Assembly (NCBI GenBank): GCA_001724265.1
Contig: MEDY01000223.1
Span: 1-64,000 of the forward strand
DNA length: 64,000 nucleotides
Direction: 5' to 3'
Origin: Rhizaria sp. SCN 62-66
Lineage: Eukaryota
The translations under genes and the position numbers were made by a program. The first letter of the stretch is position 1, and each line of letters begins with the position of its first letter. Shown in pieces: positions 9,101 to 51,841 of this stretch. The notes under the pieces were generated by a model. It searched no databases. It was given only the letters and a program-made list of their open reading frames with translations, and was not told where the DNA came from.

Positions 9101-9598
9101 GCTGACCACGAGTTGGCATTCGAGACCGAGACGGAGGCCATGCTTGCACAGGCGCGCCGCGCCGCCGCCGCCGCTGCCGCCGCTACCAAGGCCGGCGGGA
9201 ACGCCTCCGACGCCTCTGCCGCCGCCGCTGCCGCTGCCGCTGGTGCTGTCCCGACGCTCGACGACGCTGGCAACGAGCTGGACGTGATCGACGTCTTGGT
9301 GAGCCGCGCTAAGATCACGGCTGTGGCGCCTAGCGACGGCGTCAAGGTGGCCGCCAACGCCGTCGACAAGGTGCAGAACAAGAAGAACCGGCTCCTGGCT
9401 CTCGAGGGCGCGGCGATGAGCAAGAAGCAGATCTACCGGATGCGTAACAACATGCTCAAGGGCCAGGGCCGCGGACGGGACCTGTTCGAGGACGACGTCA
9501 ACATGGTCGGCACGGGCGGCGGCCAGGCCGCGAAACACCTGAACAAGGCATACGACCAGTACGGCAACCGGCTCAAGGTCAAGGACATGGAGAATTGA
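6187..9598 (+). CDS. LSG1: Large subunit GTPase 1 (circularly permuted GTPase, 60S biogenesis), ~1010 aa; exons 6187-6573, 6764-7117, 7307-9598
   Basis: IPRRPQW, WRRELA, TPFEKNIEVWKQLWRV, QIVDARNPL, NKSD (G4), GFPNVGKSS (G1), TPGKTKHFQT (G2), DCPGLVFP (G3). Phase-0 introns, TGA stop. Confidence 0.95.
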
Positions 9599-10163
9599 AG
9601 CTGAGGAAAAATCATATCTGAGAGTAGCTTTGTTTAGTGTTCAAAACAGCGTGACTAGGGTCAGTCGGGCCAAAATACCAATAGTGTTGTCGTGGAGGTG
9701 AGGTGATGCGTACAGAGTGTGTTTAGATATAAAAAGCTAATAAACAAATAATTGTATAAAAATATACTATTTTTGTGTCCGGCTATTCATTTTTTCATTG
9801 AACGCCAATTCATTTGCATGGATGCCAGAGTTCTGTCCAAATGTGTTAGTAGCGTTATCTACACAAATCATTGAGATTCTCGGGATGCTGGACTTTGAAG
9901 TGGGGCGTATCAAAAATTAAAGTCTTCAGTTATTTAATCTTGTTTAGCATGGAACTTGGGCGAGTGCATTTAGGTTAATCTTGCATTATCATTCGCCGTT
10001 CACTGCGCACTCACCACCGTTCGCACACCAGACTGTCTTCCAGAACGCTCTCCGATTCTTTTCAAGTCTTGACTATTAAGTGAAACATTTATTTGCATTA
10101 ATTGCTGCATTGAAAAAACGAAGTGATGAACTTGCAAAACGCAACGTTCTACTCCACATAAAC

Positions 10164-13100
10164 TTACCTCACCTGAGCCTTGTTCTTTGTCCCCCGGTAG
10201 TTCTCAAGCAGCGGAAACGCATGCTCGCGCACAAACTGCATCATATCCGGCGACGCACCGGCCACCCGCGCGCATGCCAGCGCCGCGTTATGCGCTGCTG
10301 CCTCCCAGCGGGGGTTGTCCCGTCGCACCAACAGCATCACGCACGCGCCGATTGCGTGCAAAACGCCAACGCCCTCAAGAGGCCCCGACGGCTGCACAGT
10401 CGCGACTTTGGCAGTAGTCGCTCCGGCAGCCGTCGCGGCGTCTAGGACAGCGGCCAGCCCCGCTTGTTGCTCTTCGAGCTTGGCCTTCTTAGCTGCGCCA
10501 GCCAGGAATGCGCCGTTGATATTGAGCGCCGATAGCACCACGCGCGCCGACGACAGCACAGCGTTGCGCACGAGAACCGACGGCGCTGCTGAGAAGTACT
10601 TGTTCCAGTCAGCCTGCGGCACCAGAGTAGGCGGTAACTGGGCAATTTTTATGACGATTTGCGCAAAGTTGCCCGCCGTCTGCGGCGACCACGAGTTGAG
10701 CGCAAGCGACACAACGCCGGCCACGCCCGAGCCTGACGCAAGAGTCACGGCGTCGTGGAGGCTGTCCTCGCCGCGATCGCCCCAGATGCAGAACTCGACG
10801 ACTCGCGCGGCCGCCAGCGCGCGCGCAACACCGGTGGGCAGTGCGCCGGCCGGCTCTGGCAGCGTGGTGCCGCGAGGCAGCCTCGCGTGGTCCGCAGTGG
10901 GGATCGGGTCAGTCGCCCGCGCCCACTGCTCCATGAACTCTCGGTCTACGTGCACCGCCCTGCCGCCGTTTGCCTGCGCGGCCGCAGACGCAGCCTTGCG
11001 CGCAGCATGCTGCGCAGCGGACGCTGCAGCTTTTGCGGACACGGGTGCCGGATCCGGGAAGTAAGCCAGCTCGCGTGACGCCTGCTGCGGGTCATGCTGG
11101 CACATGATTGCAACAGCGCGGAAGCACGAGTCGCTGAGCTCGATAAGCTCAGCCAAGCGTGCAACGGCGCTGAGCTGTCGCGTGCGCCGCTAGTCGGCCA
11201 ATGCATCTGTCTTATTGTCCTCCTTGCCAGCGGGTGCGGCTGAGGAGTTGTCCGGCAGCGTTGCAGCGACCACCGCGGCGATCCCGGTGCCCAACATAAA
11301 CCCGATGCCGTTGCGCGCAAGCATGTCGTCGCGTGCGGCAAGGCTGCCGGCGAGAAGCCGGGTGAGCAGGGTCACGGCAAGCCGCATCAGCGTAATGTCG
11401 AGCCCAGAGCACTGGACGACTGGCGGGCTAAGTCCGGACGGCGGGGGCGCTACAAGCGCGAAGAGCGCCCAGGGTAGCGCAGGCGTGGCTGCGACAATGC
11501 GCTCCGCAGAGTGCACGCCTTCGGAGACTGCCAAGTCTAGCAGCAGATCAAGACTTCTGCGCAACAACTTCATGTAACTGATGATCGTCGCCATTCCAGA
11601 CGCGTCTCTGTGCAAGGTTGCTTCCTTGGATGCCGTTAAGCGGTCAAGCACTGATACATTTAGAATACACAACAACGCGCGCAGCGCAACGCAAGCGACT
11701 ACCTCCAAAGAGTCCCCCTGATCTTTGGCCTCCCCGTCCTCGTTATCCTCCTTAGCAGCTAAAGCAAGGGCAGCAACACGATCAGGGGCAGCAGCAGAAG
11801 TTGCAGTGGCGTCGGCTTCTGTGTTAGTGCTATTGTTGCTCACGGGCGCAGGCAGACTTGCACTCGCAAGTTTTTTCCTTGAGAGCTCCTGGAGCACAGT
11901 CAACGCGCTACTCAGAACCTCTGACGCGGATGCCAAGGCGGCAAAGTTGAGCTGCCTGCCGACAGACATGCCCATGCTGGAGTGCGCCTTGACGCCGCAG
12001 CGCTCCACGTGCGTCCGCACGTACGCACACCACGCGCCGTCGGCAAACGGCGCGGCAGCCATCGCGGCGTAGCTGTTTTCCCGACCGTGTGCAGCCTGGT
12101 TTGCAACGTCAAGTGTTTTCCGCGCAGCCTCGCTCGCACGTTGCGCGTCATCGACCTTGAGCGCCAGCTCTGCCACGGCCGCCGCATCCGGCTGCGCTGC
12201 CGCCGCTGACTTACCGCCCTTGCCGCTCTTGGCGCCACCCTTAGCCGCCGCGGACCCCTTGGCGCCCTTTGACTGCGTGGCCTCATTGAGCTTCTTGCGT
12301 TCCCGCGCAAGCTGCTCCTTAGCGGCCTCTAGCGCGCGCGTTGATTGAGAGGCGGCAAGGTATGCGCGTGCAACAGAGGGCACTGTTGGCATCATCTGAA
12401 ACTCCGACGACTTCGTTGGCACCAGGCTGGGGAAACCGACACCGAAACCAAACTCCGGTCCCGCAATGGAGTGCTCGCTCGACGCGTCATCGGCCGCGTC
12501 CCAAGCGACGCGCAGCGTGTTTTGCAGCTCAGATATTAGCGTAATCCCCGGTTGCCAGCCGCGCTGAACGAGCGCCTTGAACTGCGTGTCGCGAGCAAGG
12601 CCCTCGGTCATGCTGAGGAGGTTTTGCGTCGCGCTACGCCGCACTAACCGTTGCCCGCTTGGCAGCACTGATGCCGAGCCAAAGGGGCGCGGCGCGCTTG
12701 TCCAGGCACCCGTGGAATCTGTTGGGCTTGCGGAAGTCGCGATCGCGTCTCCAAAGGCCTGTAGCTCATGTTTAGTGTACGAATCAACCTGGAGTGCAAT
12801 GGCTGTAGCCATCACCAGCGTCTCTAGCACATCGTCACTCGGGGGCGCCGCGTTGGCGTCAGGGGCAGCAGCAGCGGCGGTGCTGGCATCAGCGCCCGCA
12901 CTCGCGCTTACCGACAATGCCGGTGTTGCGGGTGTGGCCCCGCTGACGATGAGTTGCGAACGTGCTGTTTCTGACTGCAGTACATTGAGCAGCAGCCCAG
13001 TCGCCGCCTCAAGCATGACTGCAATTCCGCTCAGCCACGACTCAGCGGGCGCAGCGAAAGCGGCGTCAGCTGCAAACATGAGAGCAACACGAGTCTCACC

Positions 13101-16100
13101 GGCTGAAAAGCGCCCGCAGTCGCAATCGTTGTAGCTCTCCAGTCCTCTGAGGTCGATCATGCCAGGATGGGCGGCGTCGCCATCGACAAGCACGTGTACG
13201 CCTTGCATGATTGCGCCCTCGAGTTGCAGCAGCTGGTGCACAAGCCGAGCAACGACGCGGACCGCGCCCGCGCGATAGATGTTCTCGCGGCCCGTCTCCG
13301 TCGAAGCCGCGTTGCGCAGCGCCGACAATGCGCGGACCACCGTTAGCCACTGAGAGTCGATGGTCTCTGCAATACGCTCCTCAGCTATGTACGCGCTGAC
13401 AAGCTCGCTTGCTGCAGCGCCGTGGTGCACGCGCTCAGACCGCGGTGACGGCGCCGTCCAGGTCTCTTCGGCTTCACGCGCGGCGGCACGCATTCGGCGG
13501 AGCACCAAGTGGGCGATGACGTGGATCCCGGGCAGCATCGTCACAAAAAATACGAGTGCGCGCGTAAGCATGCGCTCAACGCCGAACTCGGCAAACTGGA
13601 TGCAGTCCGGGTGCGGCGCCCTGGCAAAGAAGTTGAAAACCGCGGCTGAAAACGGCACTTGGGACACGTACCGACTCCAGAGCTGCGTTTGTAGCTCGCG
13701 AAGCGGACCGAGAGCAACGCGCGGGTTGTCTGTCAGGAGTGCCGCGGTGTACTCTAGCTCGGAAGCCACAAAATTCGCCGACGACAGGATTGCGGTAACG
13801 CGTTGACTTGATCCCGCTAATCCTTGCATTGGCACCCTTGTTGAATTGGCACACCGTATTAGAAAGTCCCGCGCAACAGCCAGATCACTCGAAACGCGCG
13901 CGTTGATGTCGGCGGTCACACCTGGGATGTACGCAATTGTCTTCCACAGAATTTCCAGCTCGTCCCGCGGCACACTAGCAAGCGCAGCCCGCGCGACCGC
14001 CACCGGTACCAGGGGCTTGGCCAGCGGATTATCCCCGCGTGCTCCAACGGCGTGAAGGTCTGTGCCGCCGCGGCCGCCGTTGCGGTTTGAACTCCACGTG
14101 TTAAGGCCTCGGAAATAGTCGGTTTCGGAAACTGACTCAATGCCGTTCACGTAAAGCATTGCATAAGCTTGCGCAGGCTGCGACAGAGCGCCGAGACGTC
14201 CTCTTGCCATCAAATGACAAACCGACCGACTGTAATCGCGGCTTTGCGCCCTTTTGTCGACGTCCGCACCGAGACAGCCGACGTACTTGCTGCGCCAAAG
14301 AAAGGCGGCGCTATTGCGCCCTGCCGCAACAGCGGCGCTCTGATATCCTCCGTCACCGTCGCCGTCATCGTCGACACCACTGTCATCGAACCCGCTGAAG
14401 TTGCCCAGGATGCTGGTGTCGTTGCTGGAAACGTTTTCCCGACCGTTGTTGCTGCTGCAGGTTTCGGACAACTCGTCACTGTGGAAATATCCGTCGCCGC
14501 GGCTAGGGCGGCGGCTGTGCGTCTCTTTGAAGTCGCAATTGATATCCTTGCTTTTAGAATCACAGCTGCCACTGACGGCACTCTCCTTGTGACCGGCATC
14601 ATCCGGGTCAAGCCAAACAACATCGTCGTTCTCAGGGTCTTCACTGCTGCTGCTGATGTTGTCAGCGTCAATGTCCACACAGGAACCAGGCGCCGCAAAC
14701 GCAGACTCGAGCGCAACGCGACATGTACCGTAAGGCTGTGTTGTGTTTCCGTTCAGGCTTGGACTCATGTTGCGCACACTCTCTTGATCGCCTTTGCTTG
14801 AACGCATTTGTTGCTGCTGGTGCTGCTGGTCCTGGCGCTGTTGTTGCTGCTGTCTGGCTACTGCCCACGCCTCTTCATGCATCAGACTGGCAACAGACGC
14901 ATCGCTGCTCTGCTGTTCTAACATATGCGCAATCTTGTCGATCTCGGGCGGTACGGAGATGTTGATGTGTTCGCACAGCGCGGTGCACTTGTTGCAGTCA
15001 GACAGCGCGTCACCAAAGCTGCCCAACGCCTGCAATGCCTCGATGCGACGGAGATACGCTTTGACCGGCACTGGAACGCCGCCCTTGTCCTTCGCGGCGA
15101 CGGGAGACAGCTCACCATCCTCCAAGTACTCGAAGATGTTGATTGCAGTCGATGCGTCCTTGACCGCGTCTTGGTACTGCTGTAGTTTGTTGTGGCACGC
15201 GGCGCGGTTTGCGTAGTACGTCTTGTTGTCTTTGCAAATGTCAATAGCGGCAGAGTAGTATTGCGCAGCAAGAGTGTACTGCTCCTGCTTAAACGCATTG
15301 TTTCCGAGCTCTTTAAGCAGGTCTGCCTCGCGCGGCCCTTCATCACACGCTGCCACAGCCGTTTCTAGCGCAGCGAATGCGGAACTGTTCAGGTCAGCGT
15401 CCAGGATAAGCTTGAAAAGCTTGTCGCAGGCGTTGTTGATGTTGTTTTCAGCATCTATCAAAGAGACATACAAATAAATGGATTGCGAATAAGTCGAATA
15501 TAAGACACGTGTACTGTGAGACAACGTCAGCAAACACTACTAGTTTATGATGCACTTTGACATATTGACGTGCGACTTTGTTGATGCAAAACACTTACCC
15601 AGGTCCCAGAAGTCCCAAACCGCGTGGTTTGGGCCCTAGATACCGTGGTTCGAGAGGCCCATAGGTCCTGCTTCCATATGTAGGGACGCCCAGCCCTCCT
15701 CATCGCTTAACAGCCCACGGTCCTCGAGCCACTGCTTGCGCCGCTGACGGCGCCGCAAGATGACTCCGAGTTGCGTCGCCCTCGCCACACACGCGCGCAG
15801 CAGCCGCTCACGACGGGCAGCGGCGCACACGGTGGGCTCTGCGCAGCGCTGGCATGTAAGATTCGAGCTGTTGTAGTACTCCCACTTGCATTGCTCGCAG
15901 TAGCGCTGGCAAGCCTCGAGCATACCGTCATCGGCACGGCCAGCCGCAGGCAGTGCCGCATCCATCGGGGCGCTTGTCGGCTTGGGAGACGTACCAGAGC
16001 TCTCAGGAATACTTGCAGTGAAGTACGCGGACACCTTGGTGTCGTAGTCAGCGTCGGGGTCAAACGTGCCGTTGCAGATGTCATTGATAAGGCGGTTGAG

Positions 16101-16151
16101 GGCTGAGACCCGAGCGACTGCAGAAGCTTTAGTCGAGGGTGGGGTCGACAT
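10164..16151 (-). CDS. TTC12-like TPR + armadillo-repeat protein, copy 1 (~1947 aa if TAG is read as sense); exons 16151-15599 and 15454-10164; in-frame TAG at 15636-15638 and 11190-11192
   Basis: TPR carboxylate-clamp pattern (LKELGNNAFK..YYANRAAC..KAYLRR). C-terminus NAALACARVAGASPDMMQFVRE resembles, from memory, the TTC12 C-terminus. Phase-1 intron GTAAGT..TAG is shared with copy 3. The 3' end could splice at ~10172/10167 instead of ending at TAA 10164. Confidence 0.75.
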
Positions 16152-16805: not shown

Positions 16806-21164
<4,359 letters not shown>

Positions 21165-24800: not shown

Positions 24801-27800
24801 AGCCACGACTGCACGGGCGCCGCCAGCGCGGCGTCGGCAACAAACATCGCTGTCGTCCGGAGGGCCTGTTCGTCGCGTAACAGCGCGGTCGTCACGCCGT
24901 CATCGGGCGCGCCCAGGCCGCCGACGTCAACCGTCTCCGGCGTCGCCTCACCACCGCGCGCGCGAACGGCCACAGCCTGCATGAGGCACCGCTCCAGATG
25001 CAGCAACATGATCACAAGCCGTGTAACGACGCTGAGCACGCCCGAGTGCAACATGGCCTCCCGGCCGCCCTCGGCCGCAGCGACCGCGCGCAGGGCCAGC
25101 AGCACGCGCACGAGCGTCGTCCAGCGGCCGTCGACGCACTGCGCCAGCGCCTCGTCCTCGAGCGTCGCCTGGTCAAGCTGCCGCAAGCCCGCGCTGCCGC
25201 GCACCTGCCCCCGCAGCAACGGCGTCGACGCCTCTCGCGCGGCGGCGCGCGTGGCCGTCACGCGCTGCTGCACCACATCGGTGATAGTATGCAGTCCAGG
25301 CAGCATGGTTACGGCGACGAGCAGCGCGCGGGCCAAAACGCGCATCTTGGGCGCGCTGGCGGCGATGGCGGCGCGCTCGGCCAGCGGCAGCCGCGGAAAG
25401 CTGTTCAGCGCCGCCGGCACCAGAGGCAACTGGTCGACCGTCTTAGCCCACGCGAGCGTCTGGGCAGCGCGCAGGGCACCCGCGGCGACGCGCGGGATGA
25501 GGCCCGCTTTGACGGTGTGGTGAAACCGCGCCGCCTCGTCGCCAGCGATGGCAACAATCTGCCTCAGACGGGCGTGGAGTGCCGCCGCGCCTTCACCGCC
25601 GCCGAAGTCGACCCCGCCGGCGCTCTCGCCCAGCGGCACTTCGAGCGGACCGGTGTAGATCTGCAGAATGTTCAGCGCGGCATCCGGGTCGGTCGACACG
25701 CGCGCAGCCAGGTCCTCCGCCACGAACGGAATGTGTGCGAGCATCACGCTGAGGATATGAAGCTCTTGGTGAGGCACGCCAGCCAACGCGTGGCTGGCGA
25801 AGCTCTCGCGCACTTTGTCCGCCACCGCGACGTCAGCAGTGCCGCCGCTGCCGCCGCCGCTGCCACCGCCGGCGTTTGTGCGCAGCGACGTTGCGCCGGC
25901 CCTGCTGCCGCCGCGGCCGCCGCCGAAGCCGCCGGTGCCAGACGCGTTCATGACGCTGATGTAGCTCAGACGGACTTTGTCGAACTGCTGGGTGACTGAG
26001 GTTGCGTAGCCGCGGGCTTGCTCCGAGAGCTGATCCATCCGGGTGTAGATCATGTTGTTGTATATTGCACGCGCGCGCTCGCGGCTGCGGCCACGGGCGC
26101 CTACGTCCGCCCCTGAGGTGCCGGCAAAGGAGCGCAGCCACATGAAGCCATTTCTGTTATTAGTGCCCTCATTTTCGCCTTCGTTGCCGCCTTTGTTGTT
26201 GTGGTTGTTGCCGTTGTTGCTGCTGTTGCTGCTGTTGTTGTTGCTGTCGCCACTGTTGCGAGCCTTGTTGTAGCCGTGACTGTAGCCGTCATAAACGCCG
26301 TCAGAAAAACTCTCTGGGTCACTCGAACTGCTAGTAATGTTCTTGATATGATTACTGATCCGTTGAGCACTGTCAGTGTCGAATTCGGCAATGTCATTCT
26401 CTTTTTCAGGATTACCGTCAATATTGCCCTTACCATCGCCATTACCAGTGCTGCGGCCGTTAAGCTTGCCAGTCAAGCTCAAGTTTTTGCTGACCCGGCT
26501 GTTCGCAGCGCCAACGACAGCGTCGTTGTCAGCACCAGCGCCAGCGCCAGTGTCATTGCCGTTACTACTGCCCTTGGTGCAGTTGGCGTTCACCCGCCAC
26601 CCGTCGAGCGAGCCCCCCGCCGCAGCGCGCTCGCGGCCTGCGCGGTAGGCCTCGCAGCTCTGTGCGCGCACGGCCTCGGTCAGCCGCGCGAGCTCCGGGG
26701 GAGGCGCGAGCCCGTTGGCGCGGCACAGCGCGGCGCACTCGTCGCAGTCAACCAGCGCGTCGTCAAACCACCCCAATGCCTGGAGAGCTTCGATGCGGCG
26801 GATGTAGGCCTTGATCGGCACTGGCACGCCGCCACCGCCGCCGCCGCTGCTGCTGCTGCTGTTGCTAGACGCTGTTGCTGTGGCCGCTGCTGCTGGGGTG
26901 GTTGTGGCGGCACAGGCGGCGGTAGATAGCACGAGCTTACCGTCCTCCAAGTACTTAAAGATGTCGATAGCCGTCGAAGTGTCCTTGACAACATCCTGAT
27001 GGCGCATCAGCTTACTGTAGCACACCGCACGGTTTGCGTAATACACCTTGTTGTCCCGGCAGATGTTAATCGCGGCTGAGTAATTCCGCGCTGCAAAGTC
27101 GTACTGCTCTTTTTCAAACGCGACATTGCCCAGCGTCTTGAGCCTCTCAGCCTCGGCCGTGCGCCCAGCGCGATTCTCGCGTTCCAGGATCATGAGTTTC
27201 TCGACGCCGGAGAATTCTGCGCTGGCCAGGTCGCCCGACATAAACAGCTTGAAGAGCAACGAGTCTGCTTCAGAGATGTCGTGTGCCTCGTCTACCAAAA
27301 AGAGATATGATGCGCAGGTTAATGGGAAAGACAAATGATAATGATGTGGTGAGCTTACGGATGTCGGAATATGCTGCACTTTGCAACGCAATAATACACT
27401 ATGAAATATGAAACACGCAGTGAGCAGTGATCCAGCACACAGGTAAGAATATGCGTCAAAAGTTAAAGCTTTGTTGTTAGCTGTTCTGTCGCAAAACGTA
27501 CCCATCTATCCCCAAAAGTCCCACACTTCGTAGTTGATGCCAGAGGGCTAGCTCACAAGAGCCGCAGCAACCGGAGCCGTTTTTTTCTTCCCGCCGCCGC
27601 CGCTGCCGCTGTTACCCGCGCCCGCGCCGGTCGAGGAGTCCGTGGCCGTTGCGGAGCTCTTGTCACGCGCGTCCCGATCGGCCTGCCACTTGGTATGCTG
27701 CCGCTGCCGCATCTTGCAGACGCCGATGAACGTGGCTTTGTCCGCGCACACGCGCATCAACCGCTCGAGGCGCGCCAAGGCCGGGACGGTGGGGCCGGCG

Positions 27801-28114
27801 CAACGCTGGCAGGTGATGTCAGTGGGACGGTAGAACTCCCACTTGCAGTGCTCGCAGTAGCGCTGGCAAGCTGCAGCCATGCCGTTGCCAGCGCAGCCAG
27901 CCGCGGGCAAATCAGAGTCAGCAGTGGCTGAGGTTGAGCAATGTGTTGTCGGCGCTTCGGCGAACGAGGTAGGCGACTTTGCGTGGAAGTATTCCGGCAG
28001 CTTCGTGGCATAGTCCGCGTCGCGGTCGATGGTTCCGGCGATGATACCCTGGGTCAGCTTGTTGATCGCGGCACATCGGCCAAACGCACCATCGTCAGGT
28101 TCGGTGGTCGACAT
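21851..28114 (-). CDS. TTC12-like TPR + armadillo-repeat protein, copy 3 (~2017 aa); exons 28114-27502 and 27291-21851; in-frame TAG at 27548-27550 and 27506-27508
   Basis: Same architecture and same phase-1 intron as copy 1 (..VWDFW..|DEAHDIS vs ..VWDFW..|DAENNIN). TPR LKTLGNVAFEK..YYANRAVC..KAYIRR. TGA stop. Confidence 0.8.
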
Positions 28115-28876: not shown

Positions 28877-30520
28877 TCACAGCGAGTACTCCGCCTGCTT
28901 CGCCGCTTCCGCCTTGGCTTTCTCGGCGGCCGCCTTCTTGCGCGCCACCTTGGCCAGCAGCTTGAGCTCCTTCTTCTTCTTCTTCTCCTCCTCGGCCACG
29001 TGTTGTGCCACCCCGTGCAGAAAGTCGCCGAAGATCAGCTTCCCGTCCTTGGTCCGGTTCCACCACTCGAAGTACTGTCTCGCCAGTGGCGGTGCAGGCT
29101 CCACACCGCCCGGCTCGCCCCGCAGCGTCTCGAGGAAGTGGCGGATCTCGGGGAACTCGATGTACCCTTTCTCGCGCTGGTCGATATCGTCGAAAACGCC
29201 ACGGTAGTAGCTGCGCATCGGCAAAGCGACGCGGATGATAGTCTTAAGCTCGACCAGCTCTTCAAAGCGCTCAAAGCACGTGTTGACGTAGTTTTGCATG
29301 ACGGCTTGCTCCTCTTTGACGTCGCTCACCATCTGGTACGGGTGCAGGTGCTCCCAGTTGTCCACCTAAGATGAGTGCAATAACAAGAATATAGACAACA
29401 CAAGATATGCTTGGTTAGTTACTAAATCAATATGATAGATGGTATGTCATAATAATCAGACGATTGCTCGATTGTCACGTTTCACCTTGATTTGATCAGA
29501 TCACGAGGTATAATGAGTCATTTTTTAAAGTAATCAAGAGGTCATTGCGTCGCAACACTACTTAGACCTATGTAAGTACCTGAATCTCAGCGCCGTAGAA
29601 AATGAGCTGGCGCAGCGCGCGGCGGTGGTTGAGCTGGCAGCCCAGGTGCATGGCCGTATTCTTCCTGTTGTTCTGCAAGTTCGGATTCGCCCCGTAATCA
29701 AGCAGCAAAGTGAGGATCGCGGTGCCAGTCGACTCGTAGAACACAGCCTGGTGAATGAGAGGGTTGCCCTCGGTGTCGTGCTGGTTGACAAAGTCCATGC
29801 GGTCGCGCACTGGGACCTTCTTAATGAGGTGCAGCACTTCGAGCAAGTCAACGCGGCGGATGGCCTCGATGATGGGGATCTGAGGGCCCTGGCCCATCGT
29901 GATCACGTGACCGGGGTTCTTTTCCTTCACCACGGGCCTGTAAAAACAGAAACAAAAACGAATAAAACATAATATATCTGCAGTTAGAAATAAATGTTGG
30001 CTAAAATATAGATATTTCACTCTCAGGTAATATTGTTGAGTCTTGCTTTCATTTGAATACATTTTGCGATATAGAAATATATGTTAGTGAATGTTAGTGG
30101 CTTTGCAATGTTTGCTTTTGTTTTCGCGACGTACTCCTCGACGATGCCAAAGCTGTTCAGCACGGCTTTGCCGGCCTTCTTGCGGCTTGACGGTGACATA
30201 AGTGCAAAGCTTCCCCCCGCCTTGGGCGTCGCACCGCCGGCCCCGGTGCCGGGGCGGCTCGCGGTCGGCGTGGCCCCCGTGCTGTTACTATGAGCGGCAG
30301 ACGGGGTGCTAACGTTGACCGAGACGGACACGCCCTTGGGGCCCGTGGGTGCGCGCGCGGGGGCGGCGCCGGCCGCGGGGGGCTTGAGCGGTGCCGGGGG
30401 CGGGGCGCCGGAGCGGCGGGCGTTTCCGGCACCTGCGTTCGCCGCGGAATTCGTGGCACTCGTGGGTTTGGCCCCGGTGGCGCGGGCGACAGGCACGGAA
30501 GCTGTGGCGGCGGACGACAT
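28877..30520 (-). CDS. Ankyrin-repeat + EF-hand protein (~410 aa); exons 30520-30135, 29937-29580, 29365-28877
   Basis: Ankyrin-like GNPLIHQAV..LLLDYGANPNLQNNRKNTAMHLG. EF-hand-like FDDIDQREKGYIEFPE and NRTKDGKLIFGDF. Splice phases consistent, TGA stop. Confidence 0.85.
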
Positions 30521-33884: not shown

Positions 33885-36126
33885 TCATCCGACGCGAGGG
33901 ATACCGATCCTGGCCGCCGAGGGCATCGTGACAGCCAGCGCCGCCGCCCCCGCCGCCTCGGCATCGGCCTCCGCCGCCGCCTTTGCCTCCGCCACCGCCT
34001 GGCCCACGCTGTGCGCGTCAGCCGCCTGCTGCTGACTCAGCTTCTCGTCCTCGGTCGCGATTTGCCCGAAGAGCGACTGCAAGCTGTTCAAGTTCTTCGC
34101 CGCCGCCGTCGTCATCGCAGTGAACTCCTGCACCGACAACCCGTCGAGCGCCTTGTACAGCTCCAGCTTCTTGTTCAGCGCGCGCACGCTCGTGTCCAGC
34201 GCGGCGGCCTGCTTCTTCGCCGCCGCCGCCTCGCCCCGGGCAGCGTCTCGCTCCCGGATCGTCTTGGCCGTAGTGGCTTCCAGCACCGCCTGCTGCGCCG
34301 CCAACGCCGTCTTATCGCTCACGGCGGCGTCCGCGCGCGACCGCTGCTGCGCCAGCGCGTCTTGGGCCTCCGTGGCGGCAGCCTCGGCGGCGTCCAGCGA
34401 GAGACGCAGCGTGGAGAGCTGCTCCTGGGCGTCGCGGAGCTCAGCCTCGGCCCGGGCCGCCACGTCCTCAGCAGCCCTAATGTTCGCAATTAAAAAGTCA
34501 GATATATCGCCATAGATATGAGCTAGTGAGATAACAACTTGATACAACAATATACTGTAGCATGATATGCATTCAAGTTAAATATATGTTCATGAAAATG
34601 CAATCAAGGCGAGATATAAGAGCACTTCAATTTAGTTGCTGTGCTATTCTTGCTGCAAGGATTATGTCTTTGCGACAACAACATACCTAGCACGCTGCAT
34701 TTGCGCAGCTGCAACCTTCTCGCTTTCGCCGGCCTTGGCCACCGCAGCCAGCATCTCCCTTTCGCGGTTGCGCCAGATGTTGTTTTCCCTCTCGGCCTCC
34801 TTCGCCCTCACTGCGACTGCCCTATGCTCTGCGATCGCTGTCTCAAGCGCCTCCTCGGCGTGAAGTTTAGCCGCCTCCGCGCGCCGCTCCCCGGCCAGCG
34901 CGCGCGCCGCCGCCGCCTCGGCCTCCGCAACGGCCTCCTGCAGCTCCTCCACGCGATCGCTCTCACTGCCCGCATGCCGCAGCGCCGCCGCCTCGGCCTC
35001 TGCGGCGGCGGCCTGCTTCCGCAGCTGCGCCAGCTCAGCGTCAGCTACGGCCCGCGCCGCCTCCACCGCCGCCAGCGCCCGCCCCGTCGCAGCCTGTCCG
35101 GCCTCCGCGCGCGCGGCCGCGGCAGTCAGAGTAGCCGCGGTAGCCGCGGCGGCGGCGGCGGCGCGCATAGAGTCGGACTGGGCACTCTCGGAGGCCTCGG
35201 CGGCGGTCGCGACGGCGAGGTTTAAGTTAAGCCGCGTCTGGGCCAGGAGGGTCGCCAAGACGATGGGGTCGCTCTCTTCGAGCAAGATAGCGTCTGCGTC
35301 GGTCGTCGTCGCGTCGTTGTCTTTGTCGTTGTTGTTGTTGAAGATGCTGATGCCACGGGTGGATGCCAACTGCTGATGCGTCTGAGACCGACGGGACGCC
35401 TGCTCCTGCTCTAACGTGGCCAGCGCGCGTTTGTGAGCCTCATTGTTGGCCTCGGCGGTTACGAGCAGCTCCTGCAGCTCCTTAACGCGGCGCTTGAAGT
35501 GGCTTTCCATCGTGTCGTACTTTAGGCGCAGCTGGCGGATCACCTCGTCCAGCGGGGCCTGGAGTAAAAAGCAAAGGATTCCAACACAAAGATTAATGAG
35601 CTCGATAATAAAACGTTGCTATAATATAAAAAGTTCATGTTTCTATCCGTAGACTAAAAGGTTATTATTATAAGTGCCAATATTGTGGAGATATATTCGT
35701 TGATGTGAGATGACGTACCTCGGGGACTAGTTCGAGCCCAGCAGCGGCGTTGGCACGGGGAGCGGCGGCCTTCTTGAGCAAATTGAGCTCTAGCTCAAGG
35801 AAGTAAATCTGCTGCTGCAGGTTGACGACATACTCGCGCTAGAGAGCCTTGTCACGCTTTTGCGCTGCCGTGACGGCAGCTATCGGTGGTGAGGACAAGA
35901 TTGAGGTCAGACAGAAAGACTGGTGTGAGTGGGCTATCACGAGTGACAGAAGCGTACAAAGCGTGATCCAAGGCATGAAAGCACAGATAAAGCATGATTA
36001 GGCTATTGACGTACAGTTTTGCGGGTTCGCAGAGCGTGAGCCCTGGAAGCTGGACCAGGAGCCCGTGGGCGTGGCCGCGCCGGCAGGCGTGCCAGAGCCA
36101 GCCGAGCCAGTGTTCCTGGGGGGCAT
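33885..36126 (-). CDS. Coiled-coil protein (~578 aa); exons 36126-36015, 35879-35719, 35558-34687, 34476-33885; in-frame TAG at 35839-35841
   Basis: Splice phases 1/0/2 are mutually consistent. Exon 2 reads SAVTAAQKRDKAL*REYVVNLQQQIYFLELELNLLKK. Later exons are Ala/Glu-rich helical sequence. TGA stop. Confidence 0.75.
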
Positions 36127-36378
36127 TGTTTATCAGGCTAGACGCACTCGACTGAGGAATTAATTAAAAGTTTGCCAACAGTAAACAAACAGTAGTTGTT
36201 ATGCCAAAGCTTTTGTCGACTTGACGAGTGTAGACGGCAAGAGACTCACGTTTTGTTCAAGTCACGACTCGCTTGCCAAAGTAGCCGTTTTTTTCTTTGG
36301 GGCGAGATCAGAGCAGATGGGCAGTAGACTAACTTTGAACGTCACGAACGCGTCAGTTTGATCGTGAATACTGGAGCA

Positions 36379-39300
36379 ATGTCTTCTGTAGACAAGCTTC
36401 TTGACGAAACTGACCCGTCACAGTTTCTCTCTGCGCAATTCAGCGCGTGGAATGAACCAGGGGTATCCCATGACTCGGCTCCCCGCGGTGCCCCCGCCGC
36501 CTCCGCCTCTGCCGCCGCCGCCGCTGCCGCAGGCAATGCGGGGGCTGCCTCCGCGCACCACGGCGACCACAGCGATGATGACGACCTGAGAGACCTATTT
36601 CCCGTGTCGCACCGCCGGAACAACGACTCTGGCCACGCTGGCGCTGGCGCTAACAGCAACACATACAACACTGCTGCTGCTGCTTCGATTAGTGCCCGGG
36701 GTCACGCGAATGTCAGTGTCTCAGTCTCAGCATCTGCCTCTATGTCGTCCCTGGCGCTCCCCCCATCAGAATCAGTCTCTCCCATGAGCAAGACCCCTGC
36801 CCACGGCACCAGCAGCAGCAGCAGCACAGCAACAGCAGCAGGGGCAGGGGCAGGGGCAGGAGCAGGAGCAAATGCTTCGATGTTGCAACATCCACACAGC
36901 AAAGCAGGTGGCGGTCTCACCTCATCCCGCCCCTTCGCCTCCACCGCAGCCCTTTCTGCGGCGTCGTCGCAGCTGTTCGACTCGTTCAACACCAACTCAC
37001 GGGTTAACCTAGCCATTATCGAGCCTGTGGCGACCGCCGCCTCAGCCGCCACCAGGGCCCCTCGGCCCCCTCCGCCGCGGTACGTGGCGCTAAACAGCAC
37101 TTTGCAAGAATTTATTACATGTCTTACTTGCGCAACACTGTATTTGATTACCTACTCAACTGTCATCTTTATTTGTGCTCAGGATTGTCATCATTTATCT
37201 CATTTTGTCTTCTGTGCTGTTTGCCTTGCTTTGTTTTTGTCCTCCATTTAGCCCGATCAAGCTGAGCTTGCCCGTGCCTGCCCCGGCCCCCCACAAAGAC
37301 GCCGCCGCCGCCGGCAACACCATTCAGTTACCGTCGCCGTCCCAGGCGCAGGCGCAGCGGGCAGCGTATTTCGCGCCCCCATCCGTGATCGCTGCCATCA
37401 CCCCCAGCAACTCTAGCGCTCATCCCGCCAGCAGCGGCAACACCAACACCGATAACAGCAGCGGCGGCGGCGGCAGCAATGGGAGTAGCAGCGCGAGCTC
37501 CGTTGGTGGCAATATCACGGTGATGTTCGACAGCTATGGCCAACTGCCGCCGTCGGCCCGCTACCAGTCGATGCCTGCGTTCAACGTCGCCAAATTCATG
37601 CGCTCTCAGTCAAATAACTCAACTAACAACAGTAGCAGCGGTAGCAACTCAGGGGTAGGGTACTTACACGTTGTGTCCCCCTCCACTTACACCCCGGGGA
37701 TGGCAGCGGGTAACAACCGCGTTCCCGGTAATGGCGGCGGCCTAGGTTCCGACGGCAGCGGCACTTACACGGATCTAAGTGGCGCGTACATGAGCGACAA
37801 CGAAACCACCGAAGTTAGCCACAGCTACCTCTACAACACCTATAACCACTATAATAATAATAATAACAACAACAACAACAACAACAACAGCAGCAGCAGC
37901 AGCAGTGTTGGTGGAGGCATTACGGTGGGCGGAATCGCGTATGACCCCCTCAGCCCTGCCGGCGACATCAGCGGCCCTCCTGGCTCCCACAGCAACGCCA
38001 ACAGTGGCCACAACGGGGGCAATAATGGCGGCAACAACAGCGTCAGCGGCGCCCCAGTGCTGACCCTAGAGGACCGGCAGGCCCTGGCCATCGCCACCGC
38101 GACCCCGCCCTCGCTGCGCTCGCAGCCACAAATTGCACTGCTCGCGGCATTCCTGCGGTCACTGCCGTTTTTCGCGACGTTCCCGGCCGAGCTGTGCACG
38201 GCCCTGACCATGGCGTGTTCAATCAGGCGGTACGAGGCGCGGGAGATCGTCATGGGGCCCCAGCAAGCGACCGTGGGCAGCGTGGGTACCACGGGTTCCA
38301 GCAATAACAACAACAAGGTCACTGTGAGCACCAGCTCGAGTTCGAGTGCGAGTGCTGCTGACGAGGACGCTGATGAGAACGCAGTTGTGTCTGAGAATAG
38401 CGGCGATCTGCTCGTGTTGCTGTGGGGCGGGGTTGGCAGCGCGCACGTGGCGAGTAATGACCCCATTTTGCTGTCAAAACAACATCAAAAGCAACAGCAG
38501 CAGCAACAGGGGCAGCAAGAACAACAACAGCAACAGCAACAGACGAGTAACGATCCTCGGCAGAGCAAGTTTGGCAACAAAGCCAAGTTTGACGCCATTG
38601 CCGCTGCCGTCGCAGCCAACAACCGCGGCTCTCTGATCGCTGGCCTGCCGGCGTCCGTCACGGCGGCACTCGCGCGGTCACCAGTCGTCGCCGCCGCCGC
38701 GGCCGGTGCTGACGCAGCCTCTGCTGCTCACGGTCATCCCCCCGCCCACGGTCACTCTCAAGGCGGCCAGGGTAAGAATGAGGGGACTGTATTGCCGCCG
38801 GTGCGCGGTGCCGCCGCCACTAACAGCATTAGCGCGAGTGCGCTCAAGACGGTCGGCAGCACGGATAGCCTGGCCAGTAATGACAGCAACAACAGCAGTG
38901 CTGCTGCTGCTGCGATCGCACCTGGCTCGACCATGAGGTACATTAGCGACCAACATTAAACTTGATATTTGTCTCCTATTTATCTGCTAATCACTATTAA
39001 AATTTAGAATTTACGTGAATGGTATATAGAGTTAACGTTCAACCACTTTCTCACTCACTAAGTATCTCAAAAACGCTTTTTCTCTGCTTTTTCTTCCGTG
39101 TTGTTAACCCGTCTGTGAAGGTTCTTGCCCTATCAAGGCGTTGTCCGCTCCGGTGGCTCCCTCGGCACCCTCGTCATGCCCACTGTTGACCTCACCTCGA
39201 CAGCCGCAACTACATCCGCCGCAACAGCAACAGCTGACGCTAATACCAGCAACAACAGCAGCAACACGAGTGACACGAATAATAACAAGAATAACGCTGT

Positions 39301-40407
39301 GGTTCCTAAAAAGTTGGCCGGCTCTGTTGCCAATGCAGCCAACACGGCTGCTACGGAGCCGGAGTCGGAGCCGATCTTGGTCCGCGTCGCCATCGAACCG
39401 ACCGCGGCTTTACTTATCTCCCGCTCCGTCTACACCTCCCTGCTCAAGGCCTCTGTTGCCAAGGATCTCGCGGAGAAGTTCGTGTTTTTGCAGTCTGTGC
39501 ACGTACTGGGCTGCTGCACGCTGCGGCAACTGCTGTCGATTGCGCAGAGGCTGGAGAAGATCGAAGCCTCTCGCCACGCCGTCGTCTGCCGGCAGGGGGA
39601 AGTGCCGAACGCGGTGTATTTCGTCAAGGAGGGGAGCGTGCGCGTGGTTCAACGCGTTGCACTCACTAGTAGTAACAACAAGAGCAGCGTTAATAACAGT
39701 GGCAACAGCGCGAGAGCGAAACCAAGTAGTTCCAACGCCCGTCGTGGCTCTAACAGCAGTTCAACTCCAACCACGCCTGCCGCATCTACAGTCGCCGACG
39801 GCGCTAACATCTCACAGCATCAGCAGCAGCAGCATCAGGGCCAGCTGGCGTTGGAGCCGGAGGAAGAGAAGCGTGGCAAGGACTTTGAGCTGGTGGACTT
39901 AGGTGAGGTGGGGGAAGGGTGGCATTTCGGTGAATTCGCGATCTTGCGCCAAACTGTACGTCATTGAACGCTATTTCAACAAAACAAAACAAAAGAACAA
40001 TATCCGATATCTCCGATGCAATTATTTGCATCATGTTTCAAAATGCGTTTATCTCTTTGACGTATCTCTCTTTAAAGTTACTTTTCGTATCCTGCCTGAC
40101 ACTTTACTCACACACTCTCTATGTATGTCTCATTTCTCTCTGTACTTTGCTATCGCCGATGTAATAATAACAATAACGACTACAGCTGCGCACCGCCAAC
40201 GTTTTCACAACCCGCGTCTCGGTGCTCTACCGCCTCCCCGTCGACGCTTTCCTCACTCTAGTGCCCTTCAACGCCAAGGTGACGATGCAAGCCTACGCCA
40301 CGCGCCAATACCCGACCGACGAGACCACGAAGGAGCAGGTGGCTTCGGACAAGAGGTGGCGAGTCTTCCGCAGGCGCCTCGTCAATCGGGTCAAGAACTC
40401 GACTTAA
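36379..40407 (+). CDS. Cyclic-nucleotide-binding domain protein (~1147 aa, two cNMP domains interrupted by low-complexity inserts); exons 36379-37079, 37252-38937, 39121-39955, 40186-40407
   Basis: FLRSLPFFATFP; FLQSVHVL..VVCRQGEVPNAVYFVKEGSVRVV. Splicing reconstitutes the phosphate-binding cassette GWHFGEFAILRQT|LRTANV. TAA stop. Confidence 0.85.
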
Positions 40408-41168: not shown

Positions 41169-44100
41169 TTATGCAGCAACGCGGCGGCCCTGCTCCGTGA
41201 CATCATCCTCATCGTCATCGTCGTTACCGTTGCCATCCTGGCCCTCTCTATCGCTGTCGCACTCAAGTGGCAAGTCGGCCGCGTAAAGCACCCGCTGCCG
41301 GGCCAGGTCGTAGCGGGTCTTGCGGTAGCGGTTGAGCCTCAGGCCGAGGATAAGCAGGACGATTCCGGCGAGCACGTTCGGTACCATGACACCGAGGATG
41401 ATTCCTAGCCGCATGTCGCCGATGTAGTCGTCCAGCACACCGACAAAGAGTGGGCCGACGGAGCTGACGAGCCCGGAGACGGAGACGGCCAGCGCCATAG
41501 CCATGCCGCGCACGCGCGGGGTGATGTTGGCATGGTTGCTGATGATCACGAAGAGCGGGCCAAACCACGACTCGCCCAGCAAGTACGCCACAAACAGAGA
41601 GCCCATCGTCGAGTACAGAGAAGACGAAAACATGACTGAGCCCAGAGTGAAGGGCGCAGACAACAGACAGCTCAGAGCGGAGACCATAGCGAACGGCACT
41701 AGGTCCATGAGCAGAGTCAGGTCACGCTGGTAGATAGACTCGTTGATGTGGAGCTTGAACCGTTCAGACGAAGATGTGGAGGACTGTGAGGCCGAGGACG
41801 GGAAGTTAAGCCGCCCCTGAGACGCGTCGCCATTGTCAGTACCCTTAGACTTGGTGTAGACGTAAGGGGCCGGACTGGGTAAGGGCATCGCTCCAGCAGC
41901 CATTGCGGCCGCATGCTTGCCCTTAGACAGGCCACTTACACCGTTCTCACCCTGATCCTGCCCCTGCTGCTGCTGCTGCTGCTGGAGCTCAGTCGTGTTG
42001 AGCGTTAGCCCAGACACGGAGTTAATAAGCCCCCCTCTAGTCTTGTTTCCCTTACTGTTCTTGGGGGTGTTGCCGTTGATGTTGTCATGTGTGTAGTAAT
42101 CATCATCGTCAGCGTCAGACTCGATCAACAGCAGGCCAAACGTGTCGCTCTGAGTCCGGTGAGCCTTGTGGCCGTGGCCGTGACCGTGCTGATGCTGCTT
42201 CTTGTTAAGAGTATTGTTATTAACAGCATTACGACTTGCAATAGCACCATTCGCATCCTCAGCGGTGTCGGCACAGTTCCCAGCGGCAGAGTTCCCAGCG
42301 GCGTTGCTCATCGCGTTAGCGGGGGTGTTGGCAGCGTGCGTGAGCTTGAACGTCTCACGCTCAAGCAAAGCAGGTGTCAGCTTCACCACCTGAGCGCCGC
42401 CGTTAGAAACAGCGTTTGCATTGATAGTCGTGTTGTTAGACGCACGCGACGACTTGCCCCCCTTAGACTTGACACTTACATTGTTGCCATTATCGCTACC
42501 GCCAGAAGAAGCAGCCAACAGCGGATCATTCAGCGAGAAATTAGCACTCTTAACCTCCGTAGCCTTCCGACTCCGCTGCGCCTGCGACTGAGACAGCCGC
42601 TTGTGATACCGGCTATTGTTGCTCAGAGAGCGCGGCAGGCCCAGTAGCGGCGGCGGCAGCTTCTGCACCGCGTCCTCCCCGTCTGCATCCCCGCGCTCGA
42701 TCGCGCGGCGCAGCTCGTTGACGCTGTCGCGGGCGGCGGCGCTGGTGGCCCGCGACCACCAGTCGCAGATGCGGCCGCCAAGAATCGCGCTCACAGTGCC
42801 GCCAATGCACACGACGACGGCGTTGAGGATGGCGTACTCCTTGCGCTGGTCGGGAAACTCACGCTTCAGATAGACCGGTAAGAAGGAGCCGAAGACGAGG
42901 CCGCCGATGAGGCGCAGACAGGTGGCCAGCAGCAGCAGCTTCATCGTCGTCGTGTGCACGGCGACGCCAACGCTGCCGCAGCGGGAGGAGCGGGCCGCTA
43001 CCGTGTCCTCCCAGGCAAAGGACAACGCTGACCGCGTGATGCGGCCCGTTTCCAGCTCGCGCTGCGCGATGGCGCTGGGAACGGTGGGAAAACGGGCAAG
43101 CTTCGTGCCAGCATTGGCCTCACTTGCAGCGTCACTGCTAGCATCACTGCTAATGGTGCTACTAATAGTGCCAATATTGCTAGAGCTGCTAGTAAGGGTG
43201 TTGTTCGTCAGCAAAGGAGGCTGGTAACTCTTGCTATTGCCGCTTTCATGGCCGCTGTCGTCGGCGTCCATGTTAGCAATCTCGGGAGCAGGAGCAGCAG
43301 TGATAGAGTTATTATTAATGTTGTTTGACCGAGTAACGGCAGCGGCAGCGGCGGCGGGGGCGGGGGCGGCGGGCTTGGGGGGCCTGGGCGGTTCACGAAT
43401 GATCAGCGTAAGCGGCACCAACAGACAGGCCGAGATCGACCCGACTAAATAGCACGCCTCGCGCCACCCGATGACGGACATGAGCATGAGTGAAAGCGAC
43501 GCAAGCGAGTACCCGACATAAACACCGCTGGAGAGCACACCGTTGGCGACACCGCGCTCCGCCGTGGAGAAATACGAGGCCAGGAGAGAGTATGCCAGCG
43601 GCGGGCAGAAGCCCTGGCCGAGGGCCTGGACGCCACGGGCCAGCAACACGTGCCAGAACGACTGGGAGAAACCCATGATCGCAGTGCCTGTGCTCCAGAC
43701 CGAGAGGCCGAGCGCGATGGCCCATTTCCGGTTGTGGTTGTCAGCAACGTATCCGGCGAGGGTCGTGGCGGCGGCGAAGAGCGCCATAAACGCGGGGCCC
43801 GTTAGCGTGCCGTACTGCGCACCCGTGAGGCCAAGGTCATCCTTCATGCTTTCGTGGGCGGCTTGCTCCGGGGTGAGGCCGTCGGTCGGCACGGCGTAGA
43901 GGAAGACAATGAAGTAGCGGATCATGATATTAGAGCTAGAGATGCAAAAAAGGACGACGAGCATGAGCCAGCGCACCCAACCCCAGGACTGGGCCTCGGA
44001 GACGAACATCGCGGCCGGGGTTGTCGTTGCTCCGGGCTTTGCGGCCACGGTGGCAGTGGACACAACGGGGGGCGGGGGGGAGCAAGTCATCGCTTTGAAG

Positions 44101-44258
44101 CCATCGTCGGTGGGGGGCGGCGCGGCGAAGGACGCTGTAGCATTGGGGTCGGAAAGAGAGGAGTATGAGCGGGAGGAGGACGGCTCAGCCGCGACCGCTG
44201 TGGCGGCGGCGGCGGCGGCGGCAGCTGAGGCGGGCTCAGGCTTGCGCTGTTTGCCCAT
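41169..44258 (-). CDS. Spinster-like MFS transporter (1029 aa, single coding exon) with a large hydrophilic insertion
   Basis: DDLGLTGAQYGTLTG, MFS motif A GYVADNHNRK, LLARGVQALGQG, ERGVANGV, GGRICDWW, PRVRGMAMA, GPLFVGVLDD. Many hydrophobic segments; TAA stop. Confidence 0.88.
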   Translation of the reverse strand: MGKQRKPEPASAAAAAAAATAVAAEPSSSRSYSSLSDPNATASFAAPPPTDDGFKAMTCSPPPPVVSTATVAAKPGATTTPAAMFVSEAQSWGWVRWLMLVVLFCISSSNIMIRYFIVFLYAVPTDGLTPEQAAHESMKDDLGLTGAQYGTLTGPAFMALFAAATTLAGYVADNHNRKWAIALGLSVWSTGTAIMGFSQSFWHVLLARGVQALGQGFCPPLAYSLLASYFSTAERGVANGVLSSGVYVGYSLASLSLMLMSVIGWREACYLVGSISACLLVPLTLIIREPPRPPKPAAPAPAAAAAAVTRSNNINNNSITAAPAPEIANMDADDSGHESGNSKSYQPPLLTNNTLTSSSSNIGTISSTISSDASSDAASEANAGTKLARFPTVPSAIAQRELETGRITRSALSFAWEDTVAARSSRCGSVGVAVHTTTMKLLLLATCLRLIGGLVFGSFLPVYLKREFPDQRKEYAILNAVVVCIGGTVSAILGGRICDWWSRATSAAARDSVNELRRAIERGDADGEDAVQKLPPPLLGLPRSLSNNSRYHKRLSQSQAQRSRKATEVKSANFSLNDPLLAASSGGSDNGNNVSVKSKGGKSSRASNNTTINANAVSNGGAQVVKLTPALLERETFKLTHAANTPANAMSNAAGNSAAGNCADTAEDANGAIASRNAVNNNTLNKKQHQHGHGHGHKAHRTQSDTFGLLLIESDADDDDYYTHDNINGNTPKNSKGNKTRGGLINSVSGLTLNTTELQQQQQQQGQDQGENGVSGLSKGKHAAAMAAGAMPLPSPAPYVYTKSKGTDNGDASQGRLNFPSSASQSSTSSSERFKLHINESIYQRDLTLLMDLVPFAMVSALSCLLSAPFTLGSVMFSSSLYSTMGSLFVAYLLGESWFGPLFVIISNHANITPRVRGMAMALAVSVSGLVSSVGPLFVGVLDDYIGDMRLGIILGVMVPNVLAGIVLLILGLRLNRYRKTRYDLARQRVLYAADLPLECDSDREGQDGNGNDDDDEDDVTEQGRRVAA

Positions 44259-45000
44259 ATGGTCGACTTGCGCGCAGGTCTAGCAGAGCGTAACTGTTTA
44301 CCTATGATGTAACTCTGTTTGAAAAGGTGGTGAAGCGACTATAATATACGGTGGCAAAATTTGATAAAGAATACTGTTGGTTGTGAGGCAGAAGTGGAGG
44401 TAATGCAAAGCCGGGGGAAAATCGGCGTGGGTAGGGAGACCGAAGGCGCGGAATAAGGTAGGATGTCACCTAGACATGTGTAAAATGAAGAAAGAAATTG
44501 AACCGCAAATACAACCAACATAAAGACTACGGGAAACCAACTTTCACTTTTAAACACGGAAGTTGTACGGAGATATTGTGTTGCGGAATTTCTCGCTCGC
44601 AGTGACAGCGACACCACGTCGTCCTCGACCACGAGGCGGTCACGCCAGTCTGCTCGGCCCGACCACAGGCTGCAAACAGACGATTGGCCCAGACTGACTC
44701 CCTCTCACCACTCATCCACAGTCTGAAAGGGGGAAAGTTGGGTTTCGATTCGCCGGGTCGATAAATTTTATTCTGATTGGTCTTGCTATCGTCTGTTGGA
44801 GGTGAAATTGAAAATTCAAACACCCGGCGCATGTTTATCTCTTTGTGTTTTATTCGTGGTTGTTTCCGAAGCTATTTGGTCTCATAGGACTCTCGTCTTG
44901 TCTGCTTCCCGCCCCTCTCTTGTTCATTGCTCCGTTGCGACCCCGAAAACGTGTCCCTCTCATCGCCTGTTTTTCCCCCGCCCTCTGTCTCCAATCACAG

Positions 45001-51809: not shown

Positions 51810-51841
<32 letters not shown>

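Follow-up and report, generated by a model that had tools for sequence, protein, structure and literature searches.

The locus

The window, meaning the whole 64,000-nucleotide stretch analyzed here, is part of contig C223 of a 34.9-Mb, intron-containing eukaryotic assembly. It carries three tandem genes that we describe as TTC12-like TPR/ARM genes from their predicted architecture (copies 1 to 3, minus strand), together with Pfam-supported neighbors. Features are listed in order along the window.

3778-5991, minus strand: exons of an HlyIII/PAQR-family protein (Pfam)
7307-9598, plus strand: exons of an MMR_HSR1 GTPase (Pfam)
10164..16151, minus strand: copy 1, with exon 1 at 16151-15599, intron at 15598-15455, and exon 2 to 10164; in-frame TAGs at 15638 and 11192; stop TAA
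16806..21164, minus strand: copy 2, lacking the exon-1 domain and the TPR; in-frame TAGs at 20876, 20390, and 17402; stop TAA
21851..27291, minus strand: copy 3 exon 2, TPR and then a long helical/ARM-like region, stop TGA (reading frame, Pfam, and Atlas look-alikes)
27292..27501, minus strand: predicted copy 3 intron, phase 1, 210 nt, GTACGT donor and pyrimidine-rich acceptor (from the sequence and copy 1)
27502..28114, minus strand: copy 3 exon 1 (start ATG 28114), N-terminal helix, Cys cluster (CxxC...CxxC), basic helix, and WDFW motif; aligned to the N termini of P0380, P0386, P0391, and others
27506..27508, minus strand: second TAG of copy 3, putatively Glu, at the start of an acidic stretch (alignments)
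27512..27523, minus strand: WDFW motif of copy 3; the family form is W-D/E-x-W/Y-E-P and then an acidic stretch (9 of 9 motif matches among the 150 listed continue E-P)
27548..27550, minus strand: first TAG of copy 3, putatively Glu, in a variable linker (column not conserved)
28877-29365, minus strand: exons of an EF-hand protein (Pfam)
41169-44279, minus strand: exons of an MFS transporter (Pfam)

The right-hand part of the window also holds long open frames on the plus strand: an Ala/Thr-rich frame of 1,906 codons with no Pfam match (45043-50763), a 513-codon frame of similar character (50825-52366), and a frame of 1,892 codons that matches COG2_N weakly and contains many low-complexity inserts (57858-63536). 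The TAG at 45040 may be exonic or intronic.

Gene model of copy 3

A minus-strand frame free of TAA and TGA extends from 28165 to 21851 and is interrupted by TAG at 27550 and 27508. A preliminary description of this DNA had reported two TAGs 14 codons apart around the WDFW motif, and this was confirmed: exon 1 reads LVS*PSGINYEVWDFWG*M-G, with the TAGs (asterisks) at 27550-27548 and 27508-27506, 42 nt apart. The second TAG is immediately followed by an ATG (27505) and then by the GTACGT donor at 27501. That donor had been described as sharing both phase and position with that of copy 1 (GTAAGT at 15598); the phase is indeed the same, and the position is one codon further from WDFW than in copy 1. 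The reported uninterrupted exon of about 1,800 codons is copy 3 exon 2 (27291-21851; about 1,813 codons, stop TGA). GTACGT donors were also found, by eye, at three introns of the pelota gene.

Splicing was considered as an explanation for each TAG. For TAG 27550 as an acceptor, the one upstream donor-like GT weighed in detail (27615) would create a GC-rich, frame-shifting intron of 68 nt, which was rejected by inspection; the 9-nt GT..AG directly before the same TAG is too short to be an intron. The reading of TAG 27508 as the acceptor of a 4-nt exon was ruled out, given the conservation of WDFW in both copy 1 and the homologues. The best explanation of the locus is that exons 1 and 2 of copy 3 encode a single predicted protein of about 2,017 residues.

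Homologues agree with a single chain. A search of 1.84 billion protein representatives returned three matches at an E value of <1e-30, and more distant matches (P0380, P0386, P0391, P0408, and P0464) carry exon 1 and the TPR within one chain; in other organisms, one chain combines the Cys cluster of exon 1, the W-D-x-W-E-P motif, and the TPR. At the start of exon 2, Pfam TPR_1 scored above the cutoff in copy 1 and just below it in copy 3. ESM Atlas look-alikes, which include TTC12 clusters, scored 0.95 to 0.96 for homologue P0391 and 0.93 for exon 2, for which the recognition value is low. TTC12 has a role in axonemal dynein assembly. Like TTC12, the window copies have a TPR followed by ARM-like helices; they differ in size (1,450 to 2,020 amino acids), long insertions, tandem expansion, and fast evolution. 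The alternative that exon 1 makes only a separate short protein, with a new start at ATG 27505 or in exon 2, is disfavored, since homologues are one-chain proteins and copy 1 lacks an ATG at the equivalent site, although copy 3 may make some use of ATG 27505.

The public protein record of copy 1 (P0366; 99.9% identical) starts inside the intron and ends exactly at TAG 11192, and its ends are an artifact of standard-code annotation. P0367 and P0369 are called from the TPR onward, and copy 1 TAG 11192 aligns to Glu in P0367.

Comparison of the three copies

The copies are about 45% identical to one another (dS, about 1.0 to 1.3; overall dN/dS, about 0.4 to 0.5). Between copies 1 and 3, dN/dS is about 0.3 in the exon-1 part and 0.23 to 0.32 in the C-terminal part. 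In copy 2 the shared M-S-T start is retained, but neither the Cys cluster nor the intron nor the TPR is present; a poly-Asn tract lies near 19250-19380.

All seven internal in-frame stops across the copies are TAG (P = 0.02 to 0.03, given the nonsense-mutation spectrum of these genes), and the modeled coding sequences, 16 kb in all, contain no internal TAA, TGA, or frameshift. Under the standard code, these TAGs would mark decaying pseudogene copies, or copy 3 would stop at its TAGs and restart at ATG 27505. The position of that ATG directly after a TAG suits a restart, and the N terminus may be dispensable, as copy 2 lacks the N-terminal domain and P0367 and P0369 begin at the TPR. TAG would also account for about 60% of random nonsense changes here, and, at 7 among about 5,400 codons (about 1.3 per 1,000), it is roughly 10 times as frequent in the copies as on average in the genome sample described below. 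Against decay stand 16 kb at dS >1 free of frameshifts, TAA, and TGA, and a copy 2 TAG deep within the conserved C-terminal region. The standard code also leaves unexplained the TAGs in eRF1 and kinase genes, a tRNA with a CUA anticodon, and the missing TAG terminators, all described below; of the readings considered, we give it the least credence.

Genome-wide stop codon usage

Stop usage was sampled in about 1 Mb of the 34.9-Mb assembly by collecting stops that follow coding-like sequence without a nearby donor and classing them by what comes after. Among 62 coding-to-noncoding gene ends, 38 were TAA, 24 were TGA, and none was TAG (P between 1e-3 and 1e-6, assuming that TAG makes up 10 to 20% of stops). 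By codon, TAA (n = 46) was terminating in 38 cases, borderline in 4, and continuing in 4, and TGA (n = 30) in 24, 4, and 2, respectively; 5 of these 6 continuing cases meet another stop within 50 codons. TAG (n = 7) was never terminating, continued as coding sequence in 5 cases, and was borderline in 2, both of which lie within known coding sequence (one in a kinase domain and one in copy 1). Other versions of the count agree. An earlier one classed two TAGs as terminating, one antisense to a window open reading frame and the other L050; in another, 5 of 21 TAGs were so classed, 4 of them with a donor upstream and 1 with coding sequence after it.

Conserved genes are interrupted by in-frame TAG as well: the only eRF1 gene found, UBE2J1, and six kinases. 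Among 142 kinase matches, a lone TAG occurred in 9, a lone TAA in 1, a lone TGA in none, and mixed stops in 4. Five of the nine lone TAGs are exonic (L061, L062, L065, L066, and L067) and two are splice acceptors; L064 and L069 could be either. A second kinase search gave one more exonic TAG (L206) and two acceptors. The lone TAGs of family matches L063, L068, L153, L207, and L208 were dropped as splice acceptors. In the sequence sampled, UAG did not serve as a terminator, and UAA and UGA are kept as stops.

tRNA with a CUA anticodon

A single tRNA gene whose anticodon is CUA was identified (G000:C84, about 76009-76081) on a contig that also bears kinase and kinesin genes. The tRNA reaches 58 bits with the Rfam tRNA model, and a run of T follows it. 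A pattern for such tRNAs matched 40 times; scanning covered 28 loci among the first 30 matches, and one more candidate was checked. A second CUA candidate, at C441, was not recognized as a tRNA, and a DNA search of the genome found no further copy.

Among the genome's own tRNAs seen, the closest is tRNA-Glu(CUC), at 47 of 73 bases (64%), with the acceptor stem and T arm in common. The tRNA matches tRNA-His and tRNA-Glu(UUC) at 40 of 73 bases and tRNA-Asp(GUC) and tRNA-Lys at 39 of 73, and it is not close to tRNA-Gln. It is 73 nt long, with U11-A24, U13-G22, and a short (4-nt) variable loop, which we take to be Glu features, though other tRNAs share them. Its G73 is shared with the genome's own tRNA-Asp and tRNA-Glu(UUC). 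tRNA-Pyl has no GG in the D loop, no TTC in the T loop, and six pairs in the anticodon stem. That identity was ruled out by the canonical cloverleaf with GG and TTC, and the "Pyl" label assigned by ARAGORN follows the anticodon only.

No tRNA with a UUA anticodon was present among those listed (63 of 506 candidates scored). An 85-nt tRNA that ARAGORN did not assign (L008:2709-2793, on G000:C704) is probably an intron-containing tRNA-Tyr.

Release factor eRF1

The predicted eRF1 retains the NIKS and YxCxxxF motifs and differs from its homologues at almost invariant positions of stop recognition by T32S (Thr in 116 of 116), G57S (Gly in 116 of 116), and T58K (Thr in 115 of 116). According to the excerpted text of PMC5304391, a hydrogen bond links Thr32 to the G of UAG, and Iotanema has Gly at this position (T32G); excerpts of PMC4381064 report that T32A is lethal in yeast and that E107A lowers readthrough, and they make no mention of T58 or G57. 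From these positions, we infer that T32S, G57S, and T58K may remove recognition of UAG.

T58K, E54, E99, and N102 are also present in the eRF1 of a relative (JGI protein P0004; 84% identical), in which T32 and G57 are unchanged and position 107 is Val; this protein may represent an intermediate step.

Amino acid specified by UAG

The TAG in eRF1 falls at human position 107, where homologues have Glu in 105 of 116, Asp in 10, and Val in 1, the Val being that of the nearest relative, P0004. At the TAG in the kinase hinge of L206, 33 of 42 paralogues carry Glu and another 6 carry Asp. The remaining columns are more variable: L067 (Glu 10 and Asp 8 of 43), L061 (Ala 11, Glu 9, and Asp 8 of 43), L062 and L066 (mostly Ile, Thr, Val, or Lys), and UBE2J1 (n = 120; Asp 48, Asn 37, His 20, and Glu 4). 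Summed over these seven columns (L065 falls in an insert and was left out), the log-odds were 6.0 for Glu, 5.5 for Asp, and at most -6.8 for every other residue, including -13.1 for Gln and -14.7 for Leu. Gln and Leu are each found in 0 of 116 and 0 of 42 sequences at the two best-conserved columns, which are the only highly conserved TAG columns found, and the assignment thus draws on few sites. The protein columns point to an acidic residue, and by themselves do not separate Glu from Asp; the tRNA was used to break the tie.

We consider it very unlikely that UAG specifies another residue, of which Asp and Gln are the most plausible. Asp draws support from its log-odds, from the mostly Asp/Asn column in UBE2J1, and from G73 of the tRNA. 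Against Asp, it occurs at the two conserved columns in 10 of 116 and 6 of 42 sequences, its tRNA is further from the CUA tRNA than tRNA-Glu is, and its GAY codons are two changes from TAG, which is one change from GAG. In favor of Gln is the placement of several TAGs within tracts rich in Gln or at a Gln site, contexts that CAG-to-TAG transitions account for; its absence from both conserved columns and the greater distance of its tRNA argue against it.

TAG 27508 of copy 3 lines up with an Asp of copy 1 when the three copies are aligned and with Glu of P0380 and P0386 in one four-sequence alignment, and the register shifts in a larger alignment. The local reading, WDFWG*MDE, compares with the family form W-D/E-x-W/Y-E-P plus acidic stretch in such a way that Glu fits with the register off by one, which gives weak support for Glu.

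An open reading frame on another contig (L198; G000:C681:1512-4727) has a duplicated N-terminal region, a ubiquitin-like domain, and two in-frame TAGs, one of them in the ubiquitin-like domain at a position that is Gln in the organism's ubiquitins. Its C-terminal segment presumably resembles an intramolecular chaperone domain, and the frame is possibly a mobile or viral insert.

Rarity of UAG

Of 158,327 codons counted in coding-like sequence, 24 were TAG (0.15 per 1,000), about five of them doubtful. At about 0.1 to 0.15 per 1,000 it is the rarest codon counted, compared with 0.30 for ATA and 42 for GAG. By inspection, no exonic TAG was present in ten dynein genes (roughly 35,000 to 40,000 open-frame codons), where about five would be expected. 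The lack of TAG in the dyneins and its higher density in the window paralogues suggest that conserved genes avoid UAG and that it builds up in genes under relaxed constraint, such as these paralogues. Avoidance leaves room for inefficient or contested decoding.

Decoding could thus be ambiguous, with a divergent tRNA-Glu(CUA) competing against an eRF1 that partially recognizes UAG, so that each UAG cuts yield and the UAG in eRF1 acts as negative feedback. The single CUA tRNA found, the rarity of TAG with none in dyneins, and an eRF1 that keeps NIKS and YxCxxxF and itself carries a TAG all suit such competition. We nevertheless judge it improbable: none of the 62 gene ends is TAG, copies 2 and 3 tolerate three and two TAGs, and one TAG in eRF1 has a chance expectation of about 10% (31 Glu positions × 24/7,568; hand calculation), at a position that is Val in the nearest relative.

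A related reading places the code early in codon capture, with UAG just freed and read as Glu by one divergent tRNA, eRF1 still contesting it, and eRF1 synthesis dependent on readthrough of UAG. The UAG in eRF1 is suggestive of such feedback, and bacterial RF2 autoregulation is an analogue of the proposed loop. A readthrough-based eRF1 circuit is reported for plants (PMC5397192). We hold this early-capture reading to be unlikely; if true, it would mean that a change of code in a eukaryote carries its own feedback loop.

RNA and independent sequence data

Among Logan contigs, an RNA-library contig of X1 covering 20758-20955 has the copy 2 TAG at 20876 unchanged. Parts of exon 2 and copy 2 are covered by the X1 RNA contigs, none of which lies over copy 3 exon 1 or its junction, an absence of cover that proves nothing. 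One X4 contig spans 26912-27538, including TAG 27508, with no differing letters, though X4 could itself be the source data; among the long pieces listed, none extends across TAG 27550. X2 and X3 gave small shares and may be DNA. A metagenome scan found a JGI contig (L209) that is 100% identical to the eRF1 locus, including its TAG, and possibly of the same source; the scan found no relatives.

Lineage

The best named match to an axonemal dynein region, setting aside one contamination-flagged record, was Mataza (Cercozoa). In a quick tree of the dynein heavy chain (38 rows from 120 matches), the query grouped with Mataza and environmental sequences in a clade of 11 rows (SH-aLRT, 99). The organism is likely a cercozoan, judged from one gene, one named cercozoan, and a quick tree. 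The eRF1 homologues did not place the lineage.

Several monomeric ubiquitin genes (L196, L199, L200, and L203; G000:C3, C168, and C182) begin M-S-MQIF and have Ala-Asn at the usual Thr9-Gly10. The M-S-MQIF start presumably resembles the cercozoan junction insertion, although no polyubiquitin junction was seen. Complete ubiquitin genes on C3 have a three-residue extension after GG, and two C3 copies have internal deletions.

Comparison with known codes

These comparisons draw on excerpts of the cited papers. Codes in which UAG alone is reassigned include Leu in exLh and three ciliate MAGs, Gln in Iotanema, two phyllopharyngeans, and Protocruzia, and Ser in Scotinosphaera (PMC11687900). Where UAG specifies Glu, as in peritrichs, Blastocrithidia, and PL0344, UAA is co-reassigned (PMC10553269, PMC5304391, PMC12153298). 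A search of mostly open-access literature gave no report of UAG as Glu with UAA and UGA as stops and none of a second rhizarian variant, and for UAG codes in Cercozoa or Sainouroidea it gave PMC5304391 only.

The nearest by lineage is exLh (Sainouroidea, Cercozoa; UAG = Leu), likewise a rhizarian nuclear reassignment of UAG only, with genes ending in UAA or UGA only. It differs in its far commoner UAG (384 in 71 genes), in its eRF1 change (L69A), and in that the cognate tRNA is not identified there (PMC5304391), whereas here Leu is absent from the conserved columns (log-odds, -14.7) and the tRNA is 73 nt long with a short variable loop. Iotanema spirale (UAG = Gln) also keeps UAA as a stop and has a changed eRF1 Thr32 (T32G) (PMC5304391); here Gln is found in 0 of 116 and 0 of 42 sequences, the tRNA is not Gln-like, and the lineage is different. 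Phyllopharyngean ciliates (Leu or Gln) and Scotinosphaera (Ser) are alike in having UAG as sense and UAA as stop but differ in residue and lineage (PMC11687900).

Oligohymenophorea sp. PL0344 (UAG = Glu, UAA = Lys) has a tRNA-Sup(CUA) derived from tRNA-Glu, as proposed here, but has ten CUA tRNAs, reads UAA as sense, and uses both codons in 95.9% of genes (PMC10553269), whereas the present genome most often ends genes with UAA, yielded one CUA tRNA, and uses UAG very sparingly. Peritrichs and Blastocrithidia share the reassignment of UAG to Glu but reassign UAA too, and Blastocrithidia also UGA (PMC10553269, PMC5304391, PMC12153298).

Interpretation

Judged on sequence evidence, the copy 3 TAGs are probably due to genome-wide reassignment of UAG. 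Our preferred reading, to which we give a probability of about 0.8, is a variant nuclear code in which UAG is a dedicated but rare sense codon for Glu and UAA and UGA are stops. The preliminary description had favored efficient sense decoding over recent pseudogenization or leaky readthrough. The CUA tRNA, the altered eRF1, and the lack of TAG terminators in the sample support sense decoding over pseudogenization and gene-specific leaky readthrough; "efficient" we would apply to it by inference.

In the proposed mechanism, tRNA-CUA would have arisen from tRNA-Glu(CUC) and would be charged by GluRS. T32S, G57S, and T58K would weaken the reading of the third-position G of UAG by eRF1, and decoding would be efficient enough to make eRF1 itself through its UAG. 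The two TAGs of copy 3 would be products of point mutation, tolerated in a fast-evolving TTC12-like paralogue.

If confirmed, this would be a nuclear genetic code, with UAG as Glu and with UAA and UGA as stops, not found in the literature searched, and a second, different UAG reassignment in Rhizaria, with the tRNA and eRF1 changes both readable from the genome. It bears on the usual coupling of UAA and UAG and on how eRF1 loses UAG alone, and T32S, G57S, and T58K are of relevance to amber-suppression engineering. For this organism, annotation under the standard code cuts genes short, as in P0366, and the very low use of UAG would be a snapshot of early or stalled reassignment.
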